A DNA stretch of 64,000 nucleotides from Myxococcales bacterium (GTDB lineage: Bacteria; Myxococcota_A; Polyangia; Polyangiales; Ga0077539). Positions 25,452 to 62,227 of the stretch are shown here, piece after piece; the stretch's first letter is position 1; every line of letters starts with the position of its first letter. The stretch is taken from NCBI GenBank assembly GCA_016792845.1, contig JAEUKH010000018.1, positions 138,984 through 202,983 of the forward strand. The letters run 5' to 3'. The notes under the pieces are model-generated. The model searched no databases. It was given only the letters and a program-made list of their open reading frames with translations, and was not told the DNA's origin. The position numbers and the translations under genes were made by a program.

Positions 25452-26420
25452 TCAAGGGCGCCCCTGAGGCGCCACCCGCCCGCGCAAAACGTCACCGAGC
25501 GCTTCGAGCCCGCTCCACGGCACCGTCACCCGCGCGACGAGCGCCCGCGCGCGCCCCTCACCGACGGGCCCCTCGACCGACGGCGCCTGCGCCCCCGAGG
25601 CCCAGACATCGGCCCCGATGGCGCCGCCGAGGGTGCTCTCGGCGAAGCGCGCCACGGCCCGTGTGAGCCGCGCCGCGGTGTCGTCGGGGAGCGGGCCTTC
25701 GAGCCGCAGCGTCAGCGCTACGCCGCGCGCTTCAACCTGCGCGTCGAGGGTGAACCACTGCACCCGCCACTGCAACGCGTCGCTGCCGGTCTCGGCGGTC
25801 TCGCGGGGCAAACCGCGTACGCGCCAGCGCAACAGCACCTCGGGGTCGGGCGCCCGCTCGTCGTCGTGCAGGGCTGTCGGCAACACCGCGTCGACGCTTC
25901 GCGGGGCGCCCTCTGCCCAAGCCGCGAGGCCGCACTGCCCCTGGATGGCCAAGCCCACCGCGCGCCCCGCGAGAGAGCCCTCGAAGCGCAGGGCCGAGGG
26001 CCCGAGGTCGTCGCGGCGCCGCGGAGGCAAGAGGCGCTCCCACATCAGTTCGGCGATGCGTCGCCCGTCGAGGGCGCCGGCGCCGAGCCAGAGGGTTTGC
26101 CCCGCGGTCTCGGCCCAGAGGGCCCGTTCGAGCAAGCGTACGTCGACCCCGGTGACCCGCGCGCGGGTGAAGAGGGCGTCTTCGGCCGCGTCGTCGAAGG
26201 TCTGCGCGACGATGCGCCCGAGGCGCGGGTGCGCGAAGAGCGCGGCCGGTCGAAGGAAGACCCACTGCGACGCCTCAGGCGGGCTGAGGCTGCTAAGCGA
26301 GCCAGGACACCGCAGCACAGGCCGCTGCCGAGCCCCCAACGCGCGCGTGGCGCCTGTGTGCTGCGTGCACCCAAGCGCCACCACGAAGGCACCCGCGAGG
26401 CTGAGCCTCGCCGCGATCAA
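25452..26420 (-). CDS. Hypothetical lipoprotein (start overlaps the recA stop)
   Basis: Signal peptide with lipobox LGC. ATGA overlap with recA. Confidence 0.45.
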
Positions 26421-27499
26421 GCCTGCGCCTTGGGCCGCTCTTTACGAGCCGGCGCCTCAGCCTTCTCGTCGCTCTTGGCGCCGGCCCCGTTCAAGCTCTT
26501 CTTGGTGATGCCGTGCTTGCTCAGCACCTCAGTCTCGATGCGCGCGAGCACCTCGGGGTGCTCTTCGAGGTAGCGCTTGGCCTGCTCGCGCCCCTGCCCG
26601 ATGCGCTCGCCCTTGTACGAGAACCACGCGCCCGACTTCTCGACGATGGCGTCTTCGGTGGCGAGGTCGAGGAGGTCGCCGGTCTTCGAGATGCCCTGCC
26701 CGTACATGATGTCGAACTCGACCTCTTTGAAGGGCGCCGAGACCTTGTTCTTCACCACCTTCACGCGGGTGCGGTTGCCCACCACCGACTCGCCGTCTTT
26801 CAACGCGCCCACGCGGCGAACGTCGAGACGAATGGTCGAGTAGAACTTCAGCGCGTTGCCGCCCGTGGTGGTCTCGGGGTTGCCGAACATCACGCCGATC
26901 TTCATACGAATCTGGTTGATGAAGATCATGAGCGTCTGCGACCGATGCACCGAGGCCGTGAGCTTGCGCAGGGCCTGGCTCATCAAGCGGGCCTGAAGAC
27001 CCGGGAGCTGATCGCCCATGTCGCCCTCGATCTCGGCCTTCGGCACCAGCGCGGCCACCGAGTCGATCACCACCACGTCGACGGCGCCCGAGCGCACCAG
27101 CATGTCGGCGATCTCAAGGGCCTGCTCGCCGTTGTCGGGCTGCGACACGAGGAGCTCGTCGACCTTCACGCCGAGGCGGCGCGCGTAGTTCACGTCGAGG
27201 GCGTGCTCGGCGTCGATGAAGGCCGCCACGCCGCCCATGCGCTGGCACTCGGCGATGGCGTGAAGGGTCAGCGTCGTCTTGCCCGAGCTCTCAGGCCCGT
27301 ACACCTCGATGATGCGCCCCTTGGGGAAGCCCCCCACCCCGAGCGCGATGTCGAGCGACACCGACCCCGACCCCACCACCAGCATGTCGCTCTTGGCCGC
27401 CTCGGCGGCGGCGTCGAGCTTCATCACGGCGCCCTTGCCGTACTGCTTCTCGATGCCAACCAACGCGAGCTCAAGGGCCTTCTTGCGATTCTCATCCAT
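26417..27499 (-). CDS. recA: Recombinase RecA
   Basis: Walker [10 protein letters not shown] and the full RecA core. Start placed at [10 protein letters not shown]. Confidence 0.95.
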
Positions 27500-27580
27500 C
27501 TGAAAAACTCCGTGTTGGGGATCGGCGTTTGTCGCCGTCACGCTTGCTTCGTCGCCGTCGCCCACCCTCTATGCACCCTA

Positions 27581-27597
27581 CCTGAACACCCGTAAAG
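27581..27597 (-). promoter_or_regulatory. Putative LexA (SOS) box upstream of recA
   Basis: On the minus strand, CTTTACGGGTGTTCAGG matches 15 of 17 positions of the myxobacterial-type LexA consensus CTRHAMRYBYGTTCAGS. It lies about 85 bp upstream of the recA ATG. Confidence 0.4.
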
Positions 27598-27632
27598 TCC
27601 CCTACCGAACAACCGTGACATACTCTGTCACG

Positions 27633-28223
27633 CTATCGGGCCGGGGCTCTGGCCTGGCCGAGCGTCGCCCGCGCGAGAACGTGGTGTTCTGCGCCGGGCC
27701 GGGTGAGGTCGCTGCGCCAGAGGGTGAGCTCCGACACCGTGGCCTGGACGCCATCGACGCCGACCACCCCGAGGCTCCCGAGGGGGGTGGTGGCCTCGCG
27801 CACCCTCGCCAGCGTGAGGTGCGGCGCGAAGGGCTTGTTTTCAGGCTCGATGCCGAGCTCGGCGAGCCGCGCGTCGAGGGTCTCTCGGGCCGCGCTCAGG
27901 AGCTCTCGCCCGCGGCGCAGGTCGACGTAGACCACCCGCGGCGCGGCGGGTTCGCCGAAGGCGGCGAGGGCCCCCAAGAGGAGCTTCATGGGCTCGCTCT
28001 GGGCGGCCACGCTGCGCATCGCGTCGGCCACCGGCGCGGTGAGCCCGGGGTCGAGCTCGCCCAGAAAGCGCAGGGTGATGTGCAAATTGGGCGGCGGGAC
28101 GAAGCGCGCCTGCCAGCCGGCCTGGGTGGCCGACTTGCGGAAGGCCCGGGCGCACTCGGTGACGCGTCGGCTCGCGCCGAGGTCGAGCAGGCACCCCACG
28201 AAGGCCCGAACGGGGTCGGTCAT
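27633..28223 (-). CDS. thpR: RNA 2',3'-cyclic phosphodiesterase (2'-5' RNA ligase family) ThpR/LigT
   Basis: Two H-x-T/S-x motifs (HITLRFLG, HLTLARV). Start placed at MTDPVRAF. 4-bp overlap with cinA. Confidence 0.7.
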   Translation of the reverse strand: MTDPVRAFVGCLLDLGASRRVTECARAFRKSATQAGWQARFVPPPNLHITLRFLGELDPGLTAPVADAMRSVAAQSEPMKLLLGALAAFGEPAAPRVVYVDLRRGRELLSAARETLDARLAELGIEPENKPFAPHLTLARVREATTPLGSLGVVGVDGVQATVSELTLWRSDLTRPGAEHHVLARATLGQARAPAR

Positions 28224-29485
28224 CCGCAGACCCCGGCGAGGTTCATCGCGACGGGGCCGCGGCAGGCGGCGCGAACGAGCTCGAGCGCGACATGGGCCGC
28301 ATCGAGCTGGACCCGCGCGCGGTCGCCCTGAAACCTTCGCTCCAGCACGGTGGTGCCCTCGGCCGCGGCGAGAGCGAAGAACACCAACCCCACGGGCTTC
28401 TCGGCGCTGCCGCCGCCGGGCCCGGCGACCCCGCTCACGCTCACCGCGAGGTCGGAGCCCGTGAGCCGCCGCGCGCCCTCGGCCATGGCCCGCACGCACT
28501 CGGCCGACACCGCGCCGTGCCCCCGAAGGATCTCAGCCGAGACGCCCAGCACCCGCTCTTTGGCCGCGTTCGAGTAGGTCACCGCGTCGAGGAGGAGGTA
28601 CTCGCTCGACCCCGGCACCGCCGTGAGCATCGCGCCGATGAGCCCGCCCGTGCAGCTCTCGGCCACCGCGAGGGTGAAGCCTCGGGCCCTCAGCTTGCGA
28701 CCGATGGCCGCGGCGAAGCTCTCGTCGCCCTCGCCAAAATAAGCGTCGCCGAGCTTCGCCCGGGCGGCGCTCGCGGCCTGCTCGGCCACGGCCCGCGCAG
28801 AGGCCACATCGTCGGCGCGCACCGTGAGGCTCACTTCGACCACCGGCGCCGTCGCACGGTACCCGATCGCGAGCCCCGAGAACTGCTCTTCGAGCCCCGC
28901 CAAGCGCTCGCCCACGACGCTCTCGGGGAGCCCGTAGGTGCGCAAGAGCACCCGATGACGCCGCGGCTCGGCGCGCCCCAAGAGGCGCCGCGTCACTTGG
29001 GCCTCGAAGCACGCCTCCATCTCTGAAGGGTCGCCCGGCAGGAAGATCACTTCGGCCTCGGCGAGCTGCACCAGGAAGCTCGGCGCGAAGCCCACGGGAT
29101 TACCCAAAACCTCAGCAGTTTCAGGCACTTCGCTCTGCGCTTCGAGGCTCGGCGTGATCGCGCGCCCGAGGGCGCCGAGCTTGCGACGGATCTTCGTGAG
29201 CGCGACGGGGTCTTGGTGGAGCCCGACCCCGAGCACCGAGGCGGCGGCTTCGGCGGTGCGATCGTCGCTGGTGGGGCCGAGCCCGCCGGTGACCATGACG
29301 ACCGCGGCCTGGGCCGCGAGGCGTCGCAGGGTCTGGGCGATCTGCGAGACCTCATCGCCGACGGTGGTGATCTCAACGATCTCGAAGCCGAGCTCGTCGA
29401 GGCGCCGGGCAAGCCATGCGGCGTTGGTGTCGGGCACCTCGCCGCGCAAGAGTTCAGACCCGATCGAGACGATGGCCGCTGTCAT
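28220..29485 (-). CDS. cinA: Competence/damage-inducible protein CinA (MocF-like plus CinA C-terminal domain)
   Basis: MTAAIVSIGSELLRGEVPDTNAAWLA N-terminus. 421 aa, full-length CinA. Confidence 0.85.
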   Translation of the reverse strand: MTAAIVSIGSELLRGEVPDTNAAWLARRLDELGFEIVEITTVGDEVSQIAQTLRRLAAQAAVVMVTGGLGPTSDDRTAEAAASVLGVGLHQDPVALTKIRRKLGALGRAITPSLEAQSEVPETAEVLGNPVGFAPSFLVQLAEAEVIFLPGDPSEMEACFEAQVTRRLLGRAEPRRHRVLLRTYGLPESVVGERLAGLEEQFSGLAIGYRATAPVVEVSLTVRADDVASARAVAEQAASAARAKLGDAYFGEGDESFAAAIGRKLRARGFTLAVAESCTGGLIGAMLTAVPGSSEYLLLDAVTYSNAAKERVLGVSAEILRGHGAVSAECVRAMAEGARRLTGSDLAVSVSGVAGPGGGSAEKPVGLVFFALAAAEGTTVLERRFQGDRARVQLDAAHVALELVRAACRGPVAMNLAGVCG

Positions 29486-29530
29486 GGTGGGCCGTTGACG
29501 CTAAGGGCCCTCGGGGCCCGCGGTCAACCC

Positions 29531-29962
29531 TCAGGGCGCGGGCGATTTCACCGAGAGCATCTCGCGAACCTTGTCGAGCACCGGCCCATCGGCGGGCGGG
29601 AAGGCCAGCCCGTCGAGGCCCTCGGGGCGCTCCCAACGGTGGGCGGCCACTTCGAGGTCTTCGACCTCACCCGCGGTGATCGTCGCGCGGTAAAAGAGCA
29701 GCAAGACGTTCTTCTGCGGGTACCGCCAGAAGGTCACCTCGACGATCTCGCCGACCTCTGCGGTGACACCGATCTCTTCGCGGAGCTCGCGTCGCAGCGC
29801 CTCTTCGGGCGACTCGTCGGCTTCGAGCTTGCCGCCCGGAAACTCCCACAGCCCGCCGAGATCGGCCTGCCCGGGGCGCTGCGTGAGGAGCACCCTGCCC
29901 CCGCGCACGATCACCGCGGCCACCACCACGACGGTCTTGCGTTGCACAGTCTCGTTCGTCAT
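29531..29962 (-). CDS. mutT: NUDIX hydrolase MutT (8-oxo-dGTP diphosphatase family)
   Basis: Nudix box GGKLEADESPEEALRRELREEIGV. Start overlaps the upstream stop (ATGA). The ORF track shows a spurious 5' extension. Confidence 0.8.
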   Translation of the reverse strand: MTNETVQRKTVVVVAAVIVRGGRVLLTQRPGQADLGGLWEFPGGKLEADESPEEALRRELREEIGVTAEVGEIVEVTFWRYPQKNVLLLFYRATITAGEVEDLEVAAHRWERPEGLDGLAFPPADGPVLDKVREMLSVKSPAP

Positions 29963-32220
29963 GGCCCGACCTTTCGCGCGGCCACGGCGGGCCCGCGCAG
30001 CACCAACGCCTCGCCCACCAGCACCACCACCACCGCGAGGAGCACCCCCAGCATGCCCCAACTCGGGATCAGGGCCGCCGCGAAGGCCGCCACGGCGGCG
30101 CCGCCGAGGCCGACGGCGAGCACCGTCCACGCGCGCTCTCGGGCGGTTCGGGCCATCGCGAGGGCGGCCGCGGCGTCGCGGAGGTCGTCGCTGGCGAGGG
30201 CCACCCCGGTGTCGCCCCCCATGGCCCCTGCGGCCTCGATCGAGATGCCCACATCGGCCGCGGCGAGAGCCATCCCGTCTTCGGCCGGTCGCCCCACCAC
30301 GGCCACGCCGTGCCCGACCTCTGAGAGCGCGCGCACCACCGCGGGGCGCTCTTCGGGTAGCACCTCGGGGCGCAAATTGGTGACATCGAGCAGGGCCCCG
30401 ATGGCCTCGACGGTGGCCCTGCTCGCGCCGCCGAGGAGCGCCACGTCGTAACCCGCATCGATCATCGACTGCACCGCCGAGCGGGCCTCCTCTCTCACTG
30501 GGTCGTCGAGCCCGACGGCCCCCTCGACGCGCCCTTCGAGGGCCACCAAGATGGCGGTACGGCACGCGCCCTCGATCGAGGCCACGAGGTCTTCGACGGG
30601 CCCCACACTCACCCCCTCGGCCAGCAAGAGCCGCCGGTCGCCGACCACCAACGACTGCCCCGCCGAGGTCACCGCGGTGATGCCGAGGCCGGGCACCACC
30701 GTCGGGCGGCGCACCGATTCGAGACGCCACCCGCGCTCGCGCACGGCGCGAAGCACGGCCCGCGCGATGGGGTCGTCGCCCGCGACGTCTTCGGCCGCCG
30801 CGACGGCCTCGAGGATCTCGCGCTCTTCGCGGTCGCCGAGGGCCACGATGTCGGTCACCTCGGGCCGCCCCACGGTCACCGTTCGCCGCAGGCACAGGGC
30901 CACGGTGCCGACCCGCGCCGCGGCTTCGACGCTGCCCGCGTCGCGAAACACGATGCCCCGCTGGGCCGCCGCCACGAGGGCGTCGACGAAGGGCAGCTCG
31001 ACCGCAGAGGCGATCATCGCCGCCGGAGAAAGCGAGAGAATACAAGCGGTTGCACGAAGCGCATCGTCGCTCCCGAGGAGCGCGCGCACCGCCCCCGTGA
31101 GCACCGCGAGGCCGAGCGCGCCGTAGGGCAGGAGCTCGCCCACGCGACGGGCGAGGTAGATCGAGCGGGGGCCGCCGCGGTCGTCTCCGAGGAGCCGCGC
31201 GAGGCGCGCCCAGGCGACCTCTTCGCCCGCCCGGGTGGCCTGCACCTGGAGCGTGCCGCCGAGCACCTTGGCCCCTGCGAGCACGGCGTCGCCCGGCGCC
31301 GCTCTGCGCGTGAGGGTCGCCCCGGGCCAAGGGCGAATCTCGGCCTCTCCCTGCCGCACGACGCCGTCGACGGCGACCACCGCGCCTGCGCCCACGACCA
31401 CCACGGCCCCGGCCCGCAGCCGCGCGGCCTCGACCCGCTCGGTGGCCTCGGCGCCGTCGACCCCGATGGTCGACTCTCCGGCGCTGAGCGGGCGGAGCAC
31501 CTCGGCCATGGTGGGCAGCGCGCGCCCGAGGGCGTCGAGGCCCTGGCGCCCTGCGATGCGGCGCGCCATCACGGCCCACACCGCGACGGGCGTCACCGCG
31601 GCGAGCACTGCGCTGTCACGGAGGGCCTCGACCACCGCGGGCCCCGACGCGCGGATCGCCGTCAACCAAGGCAAGAGCGCGCCGAGGAGGCCAATGGCCC
31701 TGCCCACCGCGTCGGGGTCGCGAAAGCGCCGCAAGAGGCCCCGCGCGTCGACCACGATGCCCGCCACCGCGGCCACGCCGACCAGGAGCACCCGCGCGAG
31801 GTGGGGCAGCACCCCGATGCTCGCCACGAGGGCCGCGAGGGCCGCCGCGGTGATGGCCACCGCAGGCGGGATGGGGTCGACCGGCTCATCGACTACGGCC
31901 CGTGTCGCACGCGGCGTCTCGCGGAGGCTGCGGGCCCCGGCCTGCTCACCGTGGACGACCTCGGTCGGCAGCGAGGCGCGCGCGAGGCCGAGCATGTCGG
32001 TGACCTCGACGACGCTCGGGCGATACACCCGCGCCGCGCGGCCGACGACGCTGGGGCGCTCGCCATCGGGGCGGCCCCGCTCGCGACACTCGCGCGAACA
32101 GTAGAAGCGGTACTGTTCGGCGATCACGGCCACAAAGGGCGCGCGCAGCGGGTCGACCGGCGTTCGACAGGTCGCGCAGGGCACACGCTCTTGGGCTTCG
32201 GCAGAGGGCTCGCTGTTCAC
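29959..32220 (-). CDS. P1B-type (heavy-metal) ATPase homologue with degenerate catalytic motifs and an N-terminal TRASH-like Cys4 domain
   Basis: Full colinearity with CopA/ZntA-like ATPases, but DKTGT is replaced by CLRRT, TGES by TRRA, TGDN by GGAS, GDGIND by GRPAED, and CPC by CIL. The N-terminus has C-x2-C-x23-C-x3-C. Confidence 0.6.
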   Translation of the reverse strand: MNSEPSAEAQERVPCATCRTPVDPLRAPFVAVIAEQYRFYCSRECRERGRPDGERPSVVGRAARVYRPSVVEVTDMLGLARASLPTEVVHGEQAGARSLRETPRATRAVVDEPVDPIPPAVAITAAALAALVASIGVLPHLARVLLVGVAAVAGIVVDARGLLRRFRDPDAVGRAIGLLGALLPWLTAIRASGPAVVEALRDSAVLAAVTPVAVWAVMARRIAGRQGLDALGRALPTMAEVLRPLSAGESTIGVDGAEATERVEAARLRAGAVVVVGAGAVVAVDGVVRQGEAEIRPWPGATLTRRAAPGDAVLAGAKVLGGTLQVQATRAGEEVAWARLARLLGDDRGGPRSIYLARRVGELLPYGALGLAVLTGAVRALLGSDDALRATACILSLSPAAMIASAVELPFVDALVAAAQRGIVFRDAGSVEAAARVGTVALCLRRTVTVGRPEVTDIVALGDREEREILEAVAAAEDVAGDDPIARAVLRAVRERGWRLESVRRPTVVPGLGITAVTSAGQSLVVGDRRLLLAEGVSVGPVEDLVASIEGACRTAILVALEGRVEGAVGLDDPVREEARSAVQSMIDAGYDVALLGGASRATVEAIGALLDVTNLRPEVLPEERPAVVRALSEVGHGVAVVGRPAEDGMALAAADVGISIEAAGAMGGDTGVALASDDLRDAAAALAMARTARERAWTVLAVGLGGAAVAAFAAALIPSWGMLGVLLAVVVVLVGEALVLRGPAVAARKVGP

Positions 32221-32269
32221 GTCAACGCGACGCGACGCCTACCACAGCCGACGGCCCCGCTGAAACCGA

Positions 32270-34362
32270 TCACGCCTCGGCGGCTGGCGCGAGGACCATC
32301 GGCCGCAGCGGGTCGACCCCGGCCTCGCCGCGACGCGGGAGCCTCGAACGATACCGTCGCCACCACTGCTCAGCGTGCAGCGAAGACCACGGCGGATCGA
32401 GCGGCGGGAGGTCGCGCAGGAGCGCCGCGAGGGCCCCGGCCGACTGCGGCCTAAGGGCGGTGTTCTTGCTCAGGCACCGCAGCACGAGGCTCTCGAGCGC
32501 CGCGGGGATGGGCAGCGGCGCGTGGGCGTCGAGAGCAGGCGGCGGCGTCGAGGTGTGCGCCGCGAAGAGCTCTCGCAGGTCTTCGTACTCGAAGGGGGCG
32601 CGCTGCGTGAGGAGGAAATACGCCACGCCGCCGAGCGCATAGACGTCGGCCGGGGGGCCCACGGGGCGCCCCTCGATGGCCTCGGGCGCGAGGTAGAGCG
32701 GGGTGCCCACCACGGCGTTCGAGGCGGTGATGTTGTGCCCTCGGCCCATGAAGTCTTTGGCCAGCCCGAAGTCGAGCACCTTCACAAAATCTGCGATGCC
32801 GCCGCGCTCACAAATCATCAGGTTGGCGGGCTTGATGTCGCGATGCACGACCCCCTCGCGGTGGGCCTCTTCGAGGGCGTCGCAGACCTGCAAGAGGAGC
32901 TTCACCACCCGCGCCGCGGGCATCACCCCGCTCAGCGCGATGGCCTCCTCGAAGGAGAAGCCTTCGACGAACTCCATCGCGTAGTAGAAGGTGCCCGCGG
33001 CGGCGTGGCCGTAGTCGTAGATGGCGATGGTGTTGGGGTGCGTGAGCCGGCTCGTAAAGGCCACCTCGCGCTCGAAGCGGGCCAGGGCGTCGGGGCTCAA
33101 GCGCTCGGGGCGGATCACCTTCACCGCCGTTGGGCGCTTGAGGAGCAGATGCTTCGCGCGCCAGACCCGCCCATGCCCCCGCTGCCGATCTTCTCGACCA
33201 GGGTGTAGGGCCCGAGGCGTTGGGCGCGGTCGACCTCGGCCATCAGCTGCCGCACGAGGCTCCGCGCGCCGAGGGCGAGGGCCGAGGCGAGGGTGAGGGC
33301 GATACAGAACAGGGCCGTCAGACGGGCCAGCCAGGGGTTGGTGTACGCCGACACGTCGGCGATCACGGTGAGCTGCCAGGTGCGCCCGGCGAAGGTGATG
33401 CGGTCGCGTCGCTCCCACCCGTGGGCTTCGCGGAGGGCGTTCAAGCGCACCCGGTCGGTCACATAGAGCACGCGCTGTGACTCTGCGACGCCGAGGTCGG
33501 TGAGCTCGACCGCGACGGGGTCGGCGGTGCCGTTGGCGTCGTGTTGAAGCTGCGGCATCACCTCGAAGAGCTTCATGGTCACCTGCCCGACGCCCACCAC
33601 GGCGCCGCGACGACGCTCGACGCTGTCGAGCTGGAGCCCTCGCGGGAACCCCGGCGCGTACACCGTCAAGAAGAGCTCGGGTTGCCCGTCGACGCGGTAG
33701 GGCGGCGAGGCCACCGGGGCGCCGTTGTCGATGGCGGTGCGCATGCGCTGCCAGTTTACGCGCAGCCGCGTGATGTCGACGCCGAGGTACTCAGCCGCCG
33801 TCGCGGGCTCGTTGAAGGCCACGGGGAAGTAGTCGCTCCGCACCTCGGCCCGGGTCGGATGACTGAAGGTGTAAACAGGCCCGCTGCTCTCGACGAGGTC
33901 GCGAATCTCAAAGTCTGCGAGCCCCTCGGCCCTACGATCAGCCTCGAACTGAGCGCGCTCAGATTGGAGGACCCGCGGCGTCCACGCGATGCTGCGCAGC
34001 TCGGCGTGACGCTGCAAGATCGCGTGTGCGTAGTCTCGAAACTCGGCCAGCGTGACCTGATCGCTGTTGCGCAAAAACGCGGGCACCGCGTCAGCCACGG
34101 CCTCGCACGCCGCGAGCTTGCTGCGCATCTCGACCTAGTAGTCACCCGCCTGCTCTGCGAAGGCCGCGTGGGCGGCGCGAGCATCGAGGCGATCGACGAG
34201 GCGCGTCGCCAGGGCCGTCACACCGAAGCCGACGAGCGTCGAGAAGAGCACCGCGCGGCGCTGCCGCACCGGCAGCCGATGCCAGAGCGCATACCAACGC
34301 CGGAGCCCGTCACGGCGAACCGGGCTCGATTCGAGGGTGGCTTGATCGCGCAACTCACTCAC
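32270..34362 (-). pseudogene. Disrupted sensor Ser/Thr protein kinase (TM - CHASE domain - TM - kinase)
   Basis: Three ORFs colinear with one sensor-kinase gene. A TM segment (34362..34138) is ended by an in-frame TAG. A CHASE-like domain (34128..) follows. The kinase subdomain I GSGGMG is separated from VAVKV by a -1 frameshift near 33165. Confidence 0.55.
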
Positions 34363-34441: not shown

Positions 34442-35809
34442 ATGGAAGTTGAATGCGTTTCTTGTTCAACGCGCGCGCCGCAGGGCACGAAGCGTTGCCC
34501 CAAGTGCTTGAGGACTCGACTCTTGCCAGTGCCCGAAGCCCCCGCTCGGGGGGGCGAAAAGGGGCTCGCTCGACCCCTGCGCCTTGGGGTGCTCTTTGTG
34601 AGCCTCGGGCTCGGCGCGGGCGGGGCCGTCTGGCTCTCAAAATACAGAAAATCAAGCGACAATCGGGGTGTCGTCGCAGCCCCTGTGAGCGCGGCGCAGC
34701 TCGGCCTTGGAGATTCGTTGAGCCCCGAAGCGGCCGCTCTCACGCGGGCGGCCTCGACACCATCGGCGCGGCTCCGGGTGCTGGGCGAGCGGCTTCAGGC
34801 GCGACGGCGCGCGCGGTGGGTGTCTGGGGGTGATGGGGTGCCTCCGCCCCGCAGCCCGGCTCAGGTGTGGGAGGCCTTGGCGCGCCCCGAGACCGCGGTG
34901 ACGGAGCTCGAAGTGGCGCGTCTCGCGGCGGCGCTCTTGCGCGGGTGCGGCGACAGCGCCGAGGTCGCGCTCCGCGAGCGCCCGCGGCGACGTGAACACA
35001 GCCGTAGCGACGTGGCGGCCCTCGGCAGCTGGCTGGTGCGTTCGGGCGACCAGCTCCTCGACCTCGGGAGCATGATGGTGCTCGGCGCCAGCGCGGTGCC
35101 GCACACGGTGTTGAACAGTGTTCAACTCGCGGCGGCGCTCGACGCGGCAGCGGCGATCGAGGTCTCGACGGCGGCCGAGGGTCGGGCCGCGGCTTTAGGC
35201 CGGGCCGAGTCGGCGGTGAACGGTTGGCGCGACGGCTGGCTCCCGCTGGCTGCGCGGGCCACGGTTTGGGTCAACGTGGGGGCGAGCAGCGGGCTCGACC
35301 ACGCCGCCCGCGACCTCTCGGCGGCGATCGCGCTTTCAGACGACGCGGGCCTCCACCTCGCACGGGCGCGGGTGCTCCTGGGGCAGCGTCGCCTCGTCGA
35401 GGTCGCCTTCGAGACGCAGCGCGCGTTGCAGATGGCGCCGGGCTTCACCGAGGCCGCGATGGCGTCGATGCTCTTACATCGGGTCTACGCTCAGCTCGAC
35501 GGCGGCGCGCCTTCGGGGTGTGAGGCGCTCCATCTCGCGCACCAGCCCACGGCCGACCTCGCCTCGGTGCTCTGCGCCGAGGGCCAGTCTGAGGCCTCCC
35601 GGGCGCAGGCCGCGACGCAGCTCGTGGCGCGCTCGACAGACCCGTTGGTGTTGGCCTACGCGGGGCGGGCGCTCGGCCCTTCGGCGGCCCCGACGCTGCG
35701 GCAAAAGACGACCCTCGCGGCCGCGCGGCGAGAGCTCGTGGGCTGGCTCGAAGCGGCCGGTGAGAGCGCGCTGTTGGCGGCCCTGGTGCCCCAAGACGGT
35801 GGCCTGTGA
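34442..35809 (+). CDS. Zinc-ribbon plus TM hypothetical protein
   Basis: N-terminal C-x2-C-x10-C-x2-C, one TM, and a large helical domain. An in-frame palindrome at 35109 encodes LNSVQ. Confidence 0.45.
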   Translation: MEVECVSCSTRAPQGTKRCPKCLRTRLLPVPEAPARGGEKGLARPLRLGVLFVSLGLGAGGAVWLSKYRKSSDNRGVVAAPVSAAQLGLGDSLSPEAAALTRAASTPSARLRVLGERLQARRRARWVSGGDGVPPPRSPAQVWEALARPETAVTELEVARLAAALLRGCGDSAEVALRERPRRREHSRSDVAALGSWLVRSGDQLLDLGSMMVLGASAVPHTVLNSVQLAAALDAAAAIEVSTAAEGRAAALGRAESAVNGWRDGWLPLAARATVWVNVGASSGLDHAARDLSAAIALSDDAGLHLARARVLLGQRRLVEVAFETQRALQMAPGFTEAAMASMLLHRVYAQLDGGAPSGCEALHLAHQPTADLASVLCAEGQSEASRAQAATQLVARSTDPLVLAYAGRALGPSAAPTLRQKTTLAAARRELVGWLEAAGESALLAALVPQDGGL

Positions 35810-62155: not shown

Positions 62156-62227
62156 TAGGCGCGATAGGGTTTGAACCTACGACCCCCACCGTGTCAAGGT
62201 GGTGCTCTACCACTGAGCTACGCGCCT
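62156..62227 (-). tRNA. tRNA-Val (anticodon GAC)
   Basis: Manual cloverleaf fold: acceptor AGGCGCG/CGCGCCT, D-arm GCTC/GAGC, anticodon stem CCACC/GGTGG with loop TTGACAC, T-arm GTAGG-TTCAAAC-CCTAT. No encoded CCA. Confidence 0.8.

Follow-up and report, generated by a model that had tools for sequence, protein, structure and literature searches.

Few membrane enzymes are understood as well as the P-type ATPases, and to our knowledge hardly any naturally dead member of this class that selection has retained is known. Among the heavy-metal (P1B) pumps, the Cu(I)-exporting P1B-1 ATPase CopA of Archaeoglobus fulgidus (AfCopA; structures 3j08, 3j09 and 7r0g) shows an order of elements in which helices MA, MB and M1-M2 are followed by the actuator (A) domain, helices M3-M4, the phosphorylation (P) and nucleotide-binding (N) domains and helices M5-M6. 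The window analyzed here, a stretch of 64,000 nucleotides from a Myxococcales bacterium (contig JAEUKH010000018.1, positions 138,984 to 202,983), contains a gene (29959..32220, minus strand, GTG start at 32220) whose 753-aa product (GenBank MBL8601523.1) has the same order of elements but, unlike AfCopA, is devoid of the phosphorylated Asp, the Glu of TGE, the CPC cysteines, the Asp and Asn of TGDN, the HAD Lys, the first Asp and the Asn of GDGxND and the Asn residues of M5/M6, and carries a Cys4 finger where the HMA domain would be. We consider it nearly certain that this protein represents a conserved dead pump that is kept by selection across the order Polyangiales. Furthermore, we put at roughly 0.6 the probability of the fuller reading, namely that it is a pseudo-pump of single Polyangiales origin which now serves as a non-catalytic membrane scaffold or sensor.

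Retained folds without the original chemistry are used for sensing or binding in several systems, such as the yeast transceptors Snf3/Rgt2 and Ssy1 and the FCP1-like domain of Tim50, and the P4-ATPase-like domains appended to apicomplexan guanylyl cyclases are a further analogue. By analogy, the dead pump may work like such receptors, although these transceptors and pseudo-HAD receptors belong to unrelated lineages and none of them is of the P1B type or a bacterial stand-alone protein. Moreover, the ATPase domain of Plasmodium falciparum GC-alpha has been described as catalytically competent and is thus not a strict precedent (PMC7858053). Full-text literature searches retrieved no account of a bacterial P-type ATPase that is dead by nature, a listing as an uncharacterized family in the FUPA catalogue (Chan et al., 2010) being possible, and a 2023 review of P-type ATPase 'enigmas' mentions no naturally dead bacterial member.

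The first-pass annotation of this sequence had described the protein as colinear with P1B ATPases, which is borne out by Pfam matches to E1-E2_ATPase (8e-12) and Hydrolase (HAD; 7e-9), both past their cutoffs, by the top PDB sequence match, AfCopA (4e-41, about 25% identity over residues 242-723), and by the predicted fold. The protein scores above the cutoff of TIGR01494 (69 versus 62.3 bits) but below that of TIGR01525, the heavy-metal P-type ATPase model (204.6 versus 346.25 bits), and is far under the cutoff of each of the NCBIfam equivalog models CopA, ZntA and CadA. Motif equivalences were established through a residue-by-residue alignment with AfCopA, two multiple alignments and motif indexing, and the alignments agree with the placements proposed earlier for three of the motifs. 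Thus, DKTGT corresponds to C443-L-R-R-T447 (30880..30894, minus strand), with D replaced by C, K by L and T by R (R445 is 92% conserved among the relatives); TGDN corresponds to G597-G-A-S600 (30421-30432); and GDGIND corresponds to G643-R-P-A-E-D648 (30277-30294), where only the last Asp, D648, is retained. Two other losses had been recognized correctly but misplaced. The TGE(S/P) motif aligns not with TRRA (residues 304-307) but with P299-G-A-T302 (31315-31326), in which Ala takes the place of the Glu (at position 301, 83% of the relatives have A and 98% of the canonical pumps have E). The membrane CPC motif aligns not with CIL (393-395) but within S398-P-A-A-M402 (31015-31029), which contains no Cys. 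Three of the four alignments agree on this placement, the M4 helix of the AlphaFold2 (AF2) model breaks at 397 and 402, that is, at the CPC-equivalent stretch, and a relic A-P-C is found at this position in some relatives, with nothing retained there in a deep branch. In addition, the HAD motif-III Lys is replaced by R625 (in 30343-30357), the SEHP of the N domain by G481-D-D-P484, with D483 in place of the His, and the conserved Asn positions of the canonical metal site in M5/M6 are replaced as well. The blocks PEVTDIV (453-459) and ALAAADVGI (651-659) are indeed intact. Since the aspartyl-phosphate, Mg2+ coordination, the dephosphorylation Glu and the membrane metal site are all lost, the alignments show that the E1-E2 cycle and metal transport would be impossible for this protein. 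Having lost the catalytic and transport residues, and scoring below the curated cutoff, it should not be classed as a P1B transporter (TC 3.A.3.5-6).

These substitutions are a property of a whole family. A database search returned 44 relatives at 177-1517 bits, after which the scores fall to those of canonical P1B pumps (at most 145 bits). In all 44, the Asp of the phosphorylation site, the Glu of TGE and the leading Asp of GDGxND are missing; every motif is kept in all 43 canonical pumps. A scan of one genome per species yielded at least 104 relatives, of which 80 were kept, and all of the species-representative loci examined (about 80) encode full-length open reading frames (ORFs) with the same substitutions and the same N-terminal finger. 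Most of the 80 bear Polyangiales-level labels (Polyangiaceae, Sandaracinaceae, Labilithrix, Sorangium) and the rest bear broad labels of metagenome-assembled genomes (MAGs) such as Myxococcales, Myxococcota, Deltaproteobacteria or Proteobacteria; cultured carriers include Polyangium fumosum DSM 14668, Polyangium sp. 6x1 and Polyangium sp. y55x31. A profile search of 1.84 billion cluster representatives (50% identity) retrieved at least 150 family members, all at 394 bits or more, including 145 new ones. The phospho-site Asp is missing in all 145 (replaced by C in 108, S in 13, A in 7 and others in 17), none has the Glu in TGE, the first Asp of GDGxND is present in 2 and the last in 138, and the HP and SGD/SGE motifs are retained in 82 and 102 representatives, respectively. 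Altogether, the three sets (44, about 80 and 145) comprise more than 260 relatives, with possible overlap between them, and nearly all of these come from Polyangiales. Degeneration proceeded stepwise, the deeper branches keeping HP and SGD/SGE and the window's clade having lost both. In the databases, the relatives are labeled 'cation-translocating P-type ATPase', 'Cu+-exporting ATPase', 'HAD family hydrolase' or HAD-IC P-type ATPase.

The residues found at the former phosphorylation site bear on whether the protein could be an enzyme or transporter with non-canonical chemistry, for example, with Cys443 as the nucleophile. A Cys occupies the Asp position in approximately 75% of the members and the Arg two residues beyond it is 92% conserved; however, position 443 is elsewhere Ser, Ala, Leu, Arg, Thr, Pro or another residue, which rules out an essential nucleophile, and the Mg2+ ligands, the TGE Glu, the HAD Lys and the transmembrane (TM) metal ligands are all gone, so that we regard this alternative as very improbable. 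The distribution of the substitutions also speaks to the suspicion that the gene is a decaying pseudogene, a frame-shifted copA remnant or an assembly artefact. Such a suspicion could be raised by the score under the NCBIfam cutoff, the MAG source and the frameshift in the adjoining kinase gene, but is barely credible in view of the intact 753-aa ORF, the presence of the same substitutions in all relatives, isolate genomes included, the confident AF2 model and the ratios of nonsynonymous to synonymous substitution rates (Nei-Gojobori dN/dS) of 0.07-0.31 in 13 orthologue pairs. Furthermore, a six-frame regular-expression search over 29500-32700 detected an intact DK[ST]GT or GDGxND in no frame; that is, neither an intact motif elsewhere in the protein nor a frame-shifted copA remnant, the two findings that would have undermined the original interpretation, came to light. 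That interpretation, a pseudo-pump as opposed to random decay, is accordingly upheld by the presence of these substitutions in every relative examined, along with the signature of purifying selection. Purifying selection maintains the gene as a member of the core genome, and the protein combines the features by which pseudoenzymes are operationally defined, namely homology to an enzyme, loss of the catalytic residues and purifying selection.

In a neighbor-joining (NJ) tree, the dead clade is monophyletic with respect to the canonical pumps (25 of 25 bootstraps) on a stem of 0.49. Monophyly on such a long stem implies that the loss happened once, and the family is best described as a paralogue of the copper/zinc-type P1B ATPases with a single origin in an ancestor of Polyangiales (Myxococcota). 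We also attempted to derive the sister group and the ancestral metal specificity from the NJ tree, but these are not resolved by it; AfCopA as the top match hints weakly at a Cu(I)-type ancestor.

The predicted structure retains the complete pump architecture. The AF2 model, computed from a 63-sequence alignment (pLDDT 90.7, pTM 0.83), has 8 TM helices in the P1B layout with the A, P and N domains, and its top Foldseek match is the E1 state of AfCopA (7r0g, E 5e-35, TMt 0.75), followed by LpCopA, ZntA, ATP7B, CadA and KdpB. In the gene, on the minus strand, the elements succeed one another as follows. Helices MA, MB, M1 and M2 (31522..31872; residues 117-134, 140-164, 171-190 and 194-233, from the AF2 model and positive hydropathy) precede the beta-rich A domain (31186..31509; residues 238-345), which holds the equivalent of the TGE loop; the AF2 helices M3-M4 (30961..31167; residues 352-381 and 387-420, M4 being kinked) lead to the P and N domains, which together span residues 423-680 in the model, the alignments delimiting the N domain (30511..30864; residues 453-570) and the second half of the P domain (30181..30510; residues 571-680); and helices M5-M6 (29971..30180; residues 681-750, with AF2 helices at 680-717 and 719-750) complete the protein.

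Conservation is distributed unevenly over this architecture. The mean frequency of the top residue is 0.61-0.68 in the P and N domains as against 0.42-0.50 in the TM helices, and the A domain and the finger (0.59) are likewise more conserved than the TM helices. This pattern is relevant to the idea that the protein forms hetero-oligomers with an active P1B pump, or with another membrane complex, and thereby regulates it. Pseudoenzymes often control active paralogues, and the architecture is kept in full, TM helices and docking surfaces included; however, the TM helices are the least conserved part, and an active P-type ATPase was found as a conserved neighbor in none of the 84 loci compared and nowhere in the 64-kb window. 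We therefore regard such regulation as unlikely.

A position-by-position comparison of conservation in 124 family members and 43 canonical pumps separates three classes of positions. Constraint is lost at T299, E301, the CPC positions, D443, K444, T445, T449, S481, K625, D644, G645, N647 and the M5/M6 Asn positions. Shared by the family and the canonical pumps are the structural glycines and T447, E477, G511, G513, G527, D573, G598, G643, D648 and D656; AfCopA likewise has in common with the dead pump the structural glycines, T447, D573, D648 and the E...GxG...G of the N domain. Finally, R445, R504, R529, R580, Q584, D588, R601, T603, E605, D612, R617, E619, R625, R681-D-A-A684, W298 and R325 are newly near-invariant, with conservation of 92% or more at R445, R504, R529, R580, R601, R625 and R681, and the stretch SDDLRDAA at 677-684 is specific to the family. 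Three residues that formerly bound Mg2+ or phosphate, namely the DKT Thr, the motif-III Lys of the HAD fold and the leading Asp of GDGxND, have become Arg or Arg/His. We infer from the alignment that an acidic catalytic pocket has probably turned basic. We also considered Cys443 together with His644 as a new soft-metal site and rejected it upon inspection of the table of about 80 loci, in which the C/S and H/R states do not co-vary.

The same comparison bears on the possibility that the protein is an adenine-nucleotide sensor, with an N domain that binds ATP or ADP without turnover and reports the energy state at the membrane. The positions of the E...GxG...G adenine pocket that are common to canonical pumps, E477, G511, G513 and G527, are all retained in the 753-aa protein, and HP and SGD/SGE persist in 82 and 102, respectively, of the 145 new representatives. 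The window's clade, however, has an Asp in place of the adenine-contacting His and is without the TGD Asp. Since both residues are lost in this clade, an ATP-dependent role cannot be family-wide and is improbable for the 753-aa protein, and this explanation as a whole strikes us as doubtful in the extreme, short of being very improbable.

The second conserved element is the N-terminal finger (32074..32184, minus strand; residues 13-49), with the pattern C15-x2-C18-x22-C41-x3-C45 including 'FYCSREC'. Across the relatives, C41 and C45 never vary, C15 and C18 are conserved to 90% or more, and the consensus, PCxxCGxPVDPLRAxxVA....FRYFCSxxCR, fits the TRASH/YHS/zf-FCS pattern of C-x2-C-x19-22-C-x3-C with an FCS-type second half. 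Pfam searches with ten diverse fingers returned DUF7576, TRASH_HVO_1752_C, zf-FCS, YHS and zf-MYND, mostly below threshold; for DUF7576, the window protein scores 22.4 bits versus a cutoff of 27, and one relative reaches 27.0. An hhalign comparison of the family finger with the YHS finger of active pumps gives 94.3% probability, in register. The finger has a pLDDT of about 90 in the full model and of 76.5 in a model of residues 1-60 alone; with the latter, Foldseek places the TRASH domain of ZMYM5 (2das) first, followed by approximately 30 L24e/Rlp24 structures, at about 2 A over 35-38 residues, with E-values of at least 0.33 that are non-significant, as expected for some 40 residues. Considering this agreement of Cys pattern, sub-threshold Pfam matches, profile alignment and structure matches, the description of the N-terminus as TRASH-like, already given in the first-pass annotation, appears reasonable. 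Compared with the TRASH superfamily (ZMYM5 2das, L24e, zf-FCS, YHS), the window finger shares C-x2-C-x22-C-x3-C, the 'FCS' signature and a predicted fold of two hairpins and a helix but, unlike its members, remains under the Pfam gathering thresholds, and its metal binding is putative.

Motif-intact canonical pumps with an N-terminal YHS finger (DPVCGM...RTYYFCSxxC) are present among the matches. Three such active P1B pumps (P0058, P0065 and P0067; PF04945 + PF00122 + PF00702) resemble the dead pump in the combination of a finger with a P1B body but differ from it in keeping TGES, CPC, DKTGT and GDGVND and in having a finger of the C-G-M...FC..C YHS type as opposed to Cys4; moreover, they are not the canonical sequences nearest to the dead clade in a distance analysis. 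Inheritance of the finger from finger-bearing active pumps seems probable. A database search with the finger alone returned only short fragments. Several metagenome fragments (P0238-P0243, some named 'YHS domain-containing') have a similar finger, CPxCGKPVDPLRAPAVxV..GK.V.FCSKEC, followed by KDATP-type repeats, and may represent a second protein family using the same finger.

With respect to genomic context, the minus-strand order in the window is CHASE-kinase, dead-pump gene, nudix, cinA, thpR/ligT and recA. No terminator-like site was detected from the kinase gene to cinA, and scans for Rfam families, promoters and terminators yielded nothing relevant. The TGA stop of the dead-pump gene and the ATG of the gene for a 143-aa MutT-like NUDIX hydrolase (29531..29962, minus strand) form an ATGA overlap, as had been pointed out, by which the two genes are coupled in translation. 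This arrangement is conserved: in the window's clade (dead-pump proteins at least 52% identical), each of the 11 loci whose sequence extends far enough has the overlapping NUDIX gene directly downstream. Genes called by GC content at third codon positions (GC3) were clustered over 84 loci, with the main recurrent clusters annotated by Pfam or NCBIfam, and other arrangements emerge in other sub-clades. The order is rlmI-like methyltransferase, HAD, argD, (argF), dead pump and (fur or Ser/Thr kinase) in Polyangiaceae and Labilithrix, and YkuD, dead pump, argH and lysA in a Sandaracinaceae-like group. In 20-26 loci, a fur gene in the same orientation follows the dead-pump gene at a distance of about 95 nt, and in 36-46 loci argD precedes it; both linkages persist down to 37% identity of the dead-pump orthologues; no fur gene was found in the 64-kb window. 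Other recurrent neighbors resemble housekeeping genes, namely those for a DnaK-like protein, a pseudouridine synthase, an epimerase and a PrsW-like protein, all named from their sequences or Pfam tags without a dedicated profile search. No metal-resistance island surrounds the gene at the examined loci, and the dead-pump gene is a vertically inherited core-genome gene.

A link to the arginine pathway was considered, given that argD/argF precede the gene in Polyangiaceae and argH-lysA follow it in the Sandaracinaceae-like group (L004, L022, L051, L060, L067 and L075 versus L016-L072). We do not treat it as functional evidence, because the pattern is explained more simply by insertion of the gene into an ancestral arg-lys housekeeping cluster that was probably broken later on either side; the reference cluster is the one that we take to exist in other deltaproteobacteria.

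The adjoining kinase gene had been cited in support of a sensor role, and in its strongest form this proposal is that of a metal sensor whose TRASH finger binds Cu or Zn and whose dead pump relays the signal to the neighboring CHASE-domain Ser/Thr kinase. The conservation of the Cys4 TRASH/YHS finger, the homologous fingers on active metal pumps, the Fur-family regulator conserved downstream in Polyangiaceae and the kinases near the gene in about 25 loci are compatible with it. However, the kinase of the window is itself frameshifted: the CHASE ORF (33121-34128) and the Ser/Thr kinase ORF (32270-33418, minus strand) overlap in different frames and make up a single CHASE-kinase gene (32270-34128) that is interrupted by a 1-nt indel near 33165-33175, in the G-run of the glycine loop of the kinase, between GGCATGGGCG and GGTCTGG (GSGGMG and VWRAKHLLLK, respectively); the indel reflects either true pseudogenization or a homopolymer miscall in the MAG. 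Moreover, the closest relatives, L001 and L002, carry no kinase at this place, and within the window's clade a nearby kinase is seen in only 2 of 11 loci, L007 and the window itself. Kinase density is very high in these genomes, and the presence of a kinase within a few kb in 23 of 64 Polyangiales loci is about the chance frequency. The membrane metal site is also abolished. We therefore reject the kinase as a conserved partner, the support it had seemed to lend falls away, and the relay scheme as a whole appears quite unlikely, a little more so than control of an active paralogue. As for metals in general, the Cys4 finger and the Fur-family neighbor in the deeper branches are the only hints, the membrane metal site being gone.

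Two observations concern kinases and other genes around this locus. In Labilithrix-like loci (L019, L024, L054, L059, L069, L076-L080 and L083), the dead-pump gene is followed by a Ser/Thr kinase gene and next by a conserved gene for a protein of about 850-920 aa (cluster c22, with an 'MMHDVARP' stretch), the three forming a lineage-specific conserved trio. In the window, a 455-aa ORF (34442-35809, plus strand) without a Pfam match and with an N-terminal CxxC...CxxC has a homologue with 42% identity in the closest relative (L001 6531-7880), where it is encoded upstream of the dead pump in divergent orientation; given that this homologue adjoins the dead-pump gene there, the CHASE-kinase of the window looks inserted between the two genes.

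Returning to the pseudo-pump as a non-catalytic scaffold or sensor, we propose the following scheme. The retained eight-helix body would serve as a membrane anchor, and the cytoplasmic headpiece, the most conserved part, would provide the working surfaces together with the finger; that the protein acts through this headpiece and the zinc finger is, in our estimate, an evenly balanced proposition. The former Mg/phosphate pocket would have been rebuilt with the near-invariant R445, R625 and R644. In the window's clade, the protein is co-translated with the MutT-like NUDIX protein, which is its most plausible candidate partner, although any specific ligand or partner is much less probable than the general scheme, and an ATP-dependent role is unlikely there because the N-domain His and the TGD Asp are lost; in the deeper branches, nucleotide binding and a link to the downstream Fur-family regulator could be possible. 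More ambitiously, the family could constitute a first bacterial class of pump-derived receptors, in which the headpiece reads a ligand, the Arg pocket binds a phosphate-bearing ligand or a phosphoprotein, the finger binds a metal or a partner and the body signals to NUDIX or Fur, but this we think rather unlikely.

Several considerations weigh against the scaffold or sensor interpretation. Any particular non-catalytic role is conjectural, and the Arg-lined pocket is deduced purely from alignment positions. The Cys4 finger may be purely structural, holding zinc. The neighbors vary among the sub-clades (nudix, fur, argH, kinases), so that no single partner is implied, and synteny within related lineages may reflect inheritance as opposed to function. 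On sequence grounds, an unconventional enzymatic activity is also possible.

With its more than 190 clusters at 50% identity, this order-wide core-genome clade shows the pump scaffold in a second use that involves no catalysis, and its members amount to a natural experiment on the capacities of the A/P/N headpiece and the TM bundle in the absence of a phosphorylation cycle. Furthermore, because its members are mislabeled as active pumps, counts of metal-resistance genes in Polyangiales genomes and metagenomes are inflated. A simple signature would suffice for correct annotation: DKTGT appears as [CS]-x-R-G-T and GDGxND as G-[RH]-x-x-x-D, accompanied by DDLRDAA and, at the N-terminus, by a finger of the form PCxxCGxxVDPLRA.

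Among the remaining features of the window, cinA, thpR/ligT (2',5' RNA ligase family) and recA lie just downstream of NUDIX (26417-29485, minus strand), as they do in L001; the LigT and RecA ORFs as listed have implausibly long Arg-rich N-termini, and the true starts are probably further in. A tRNA-Val (GAC) gene at 62156-62227 (minus strand) is the sole Rfam or ARAGORN match in the 64-kb window.

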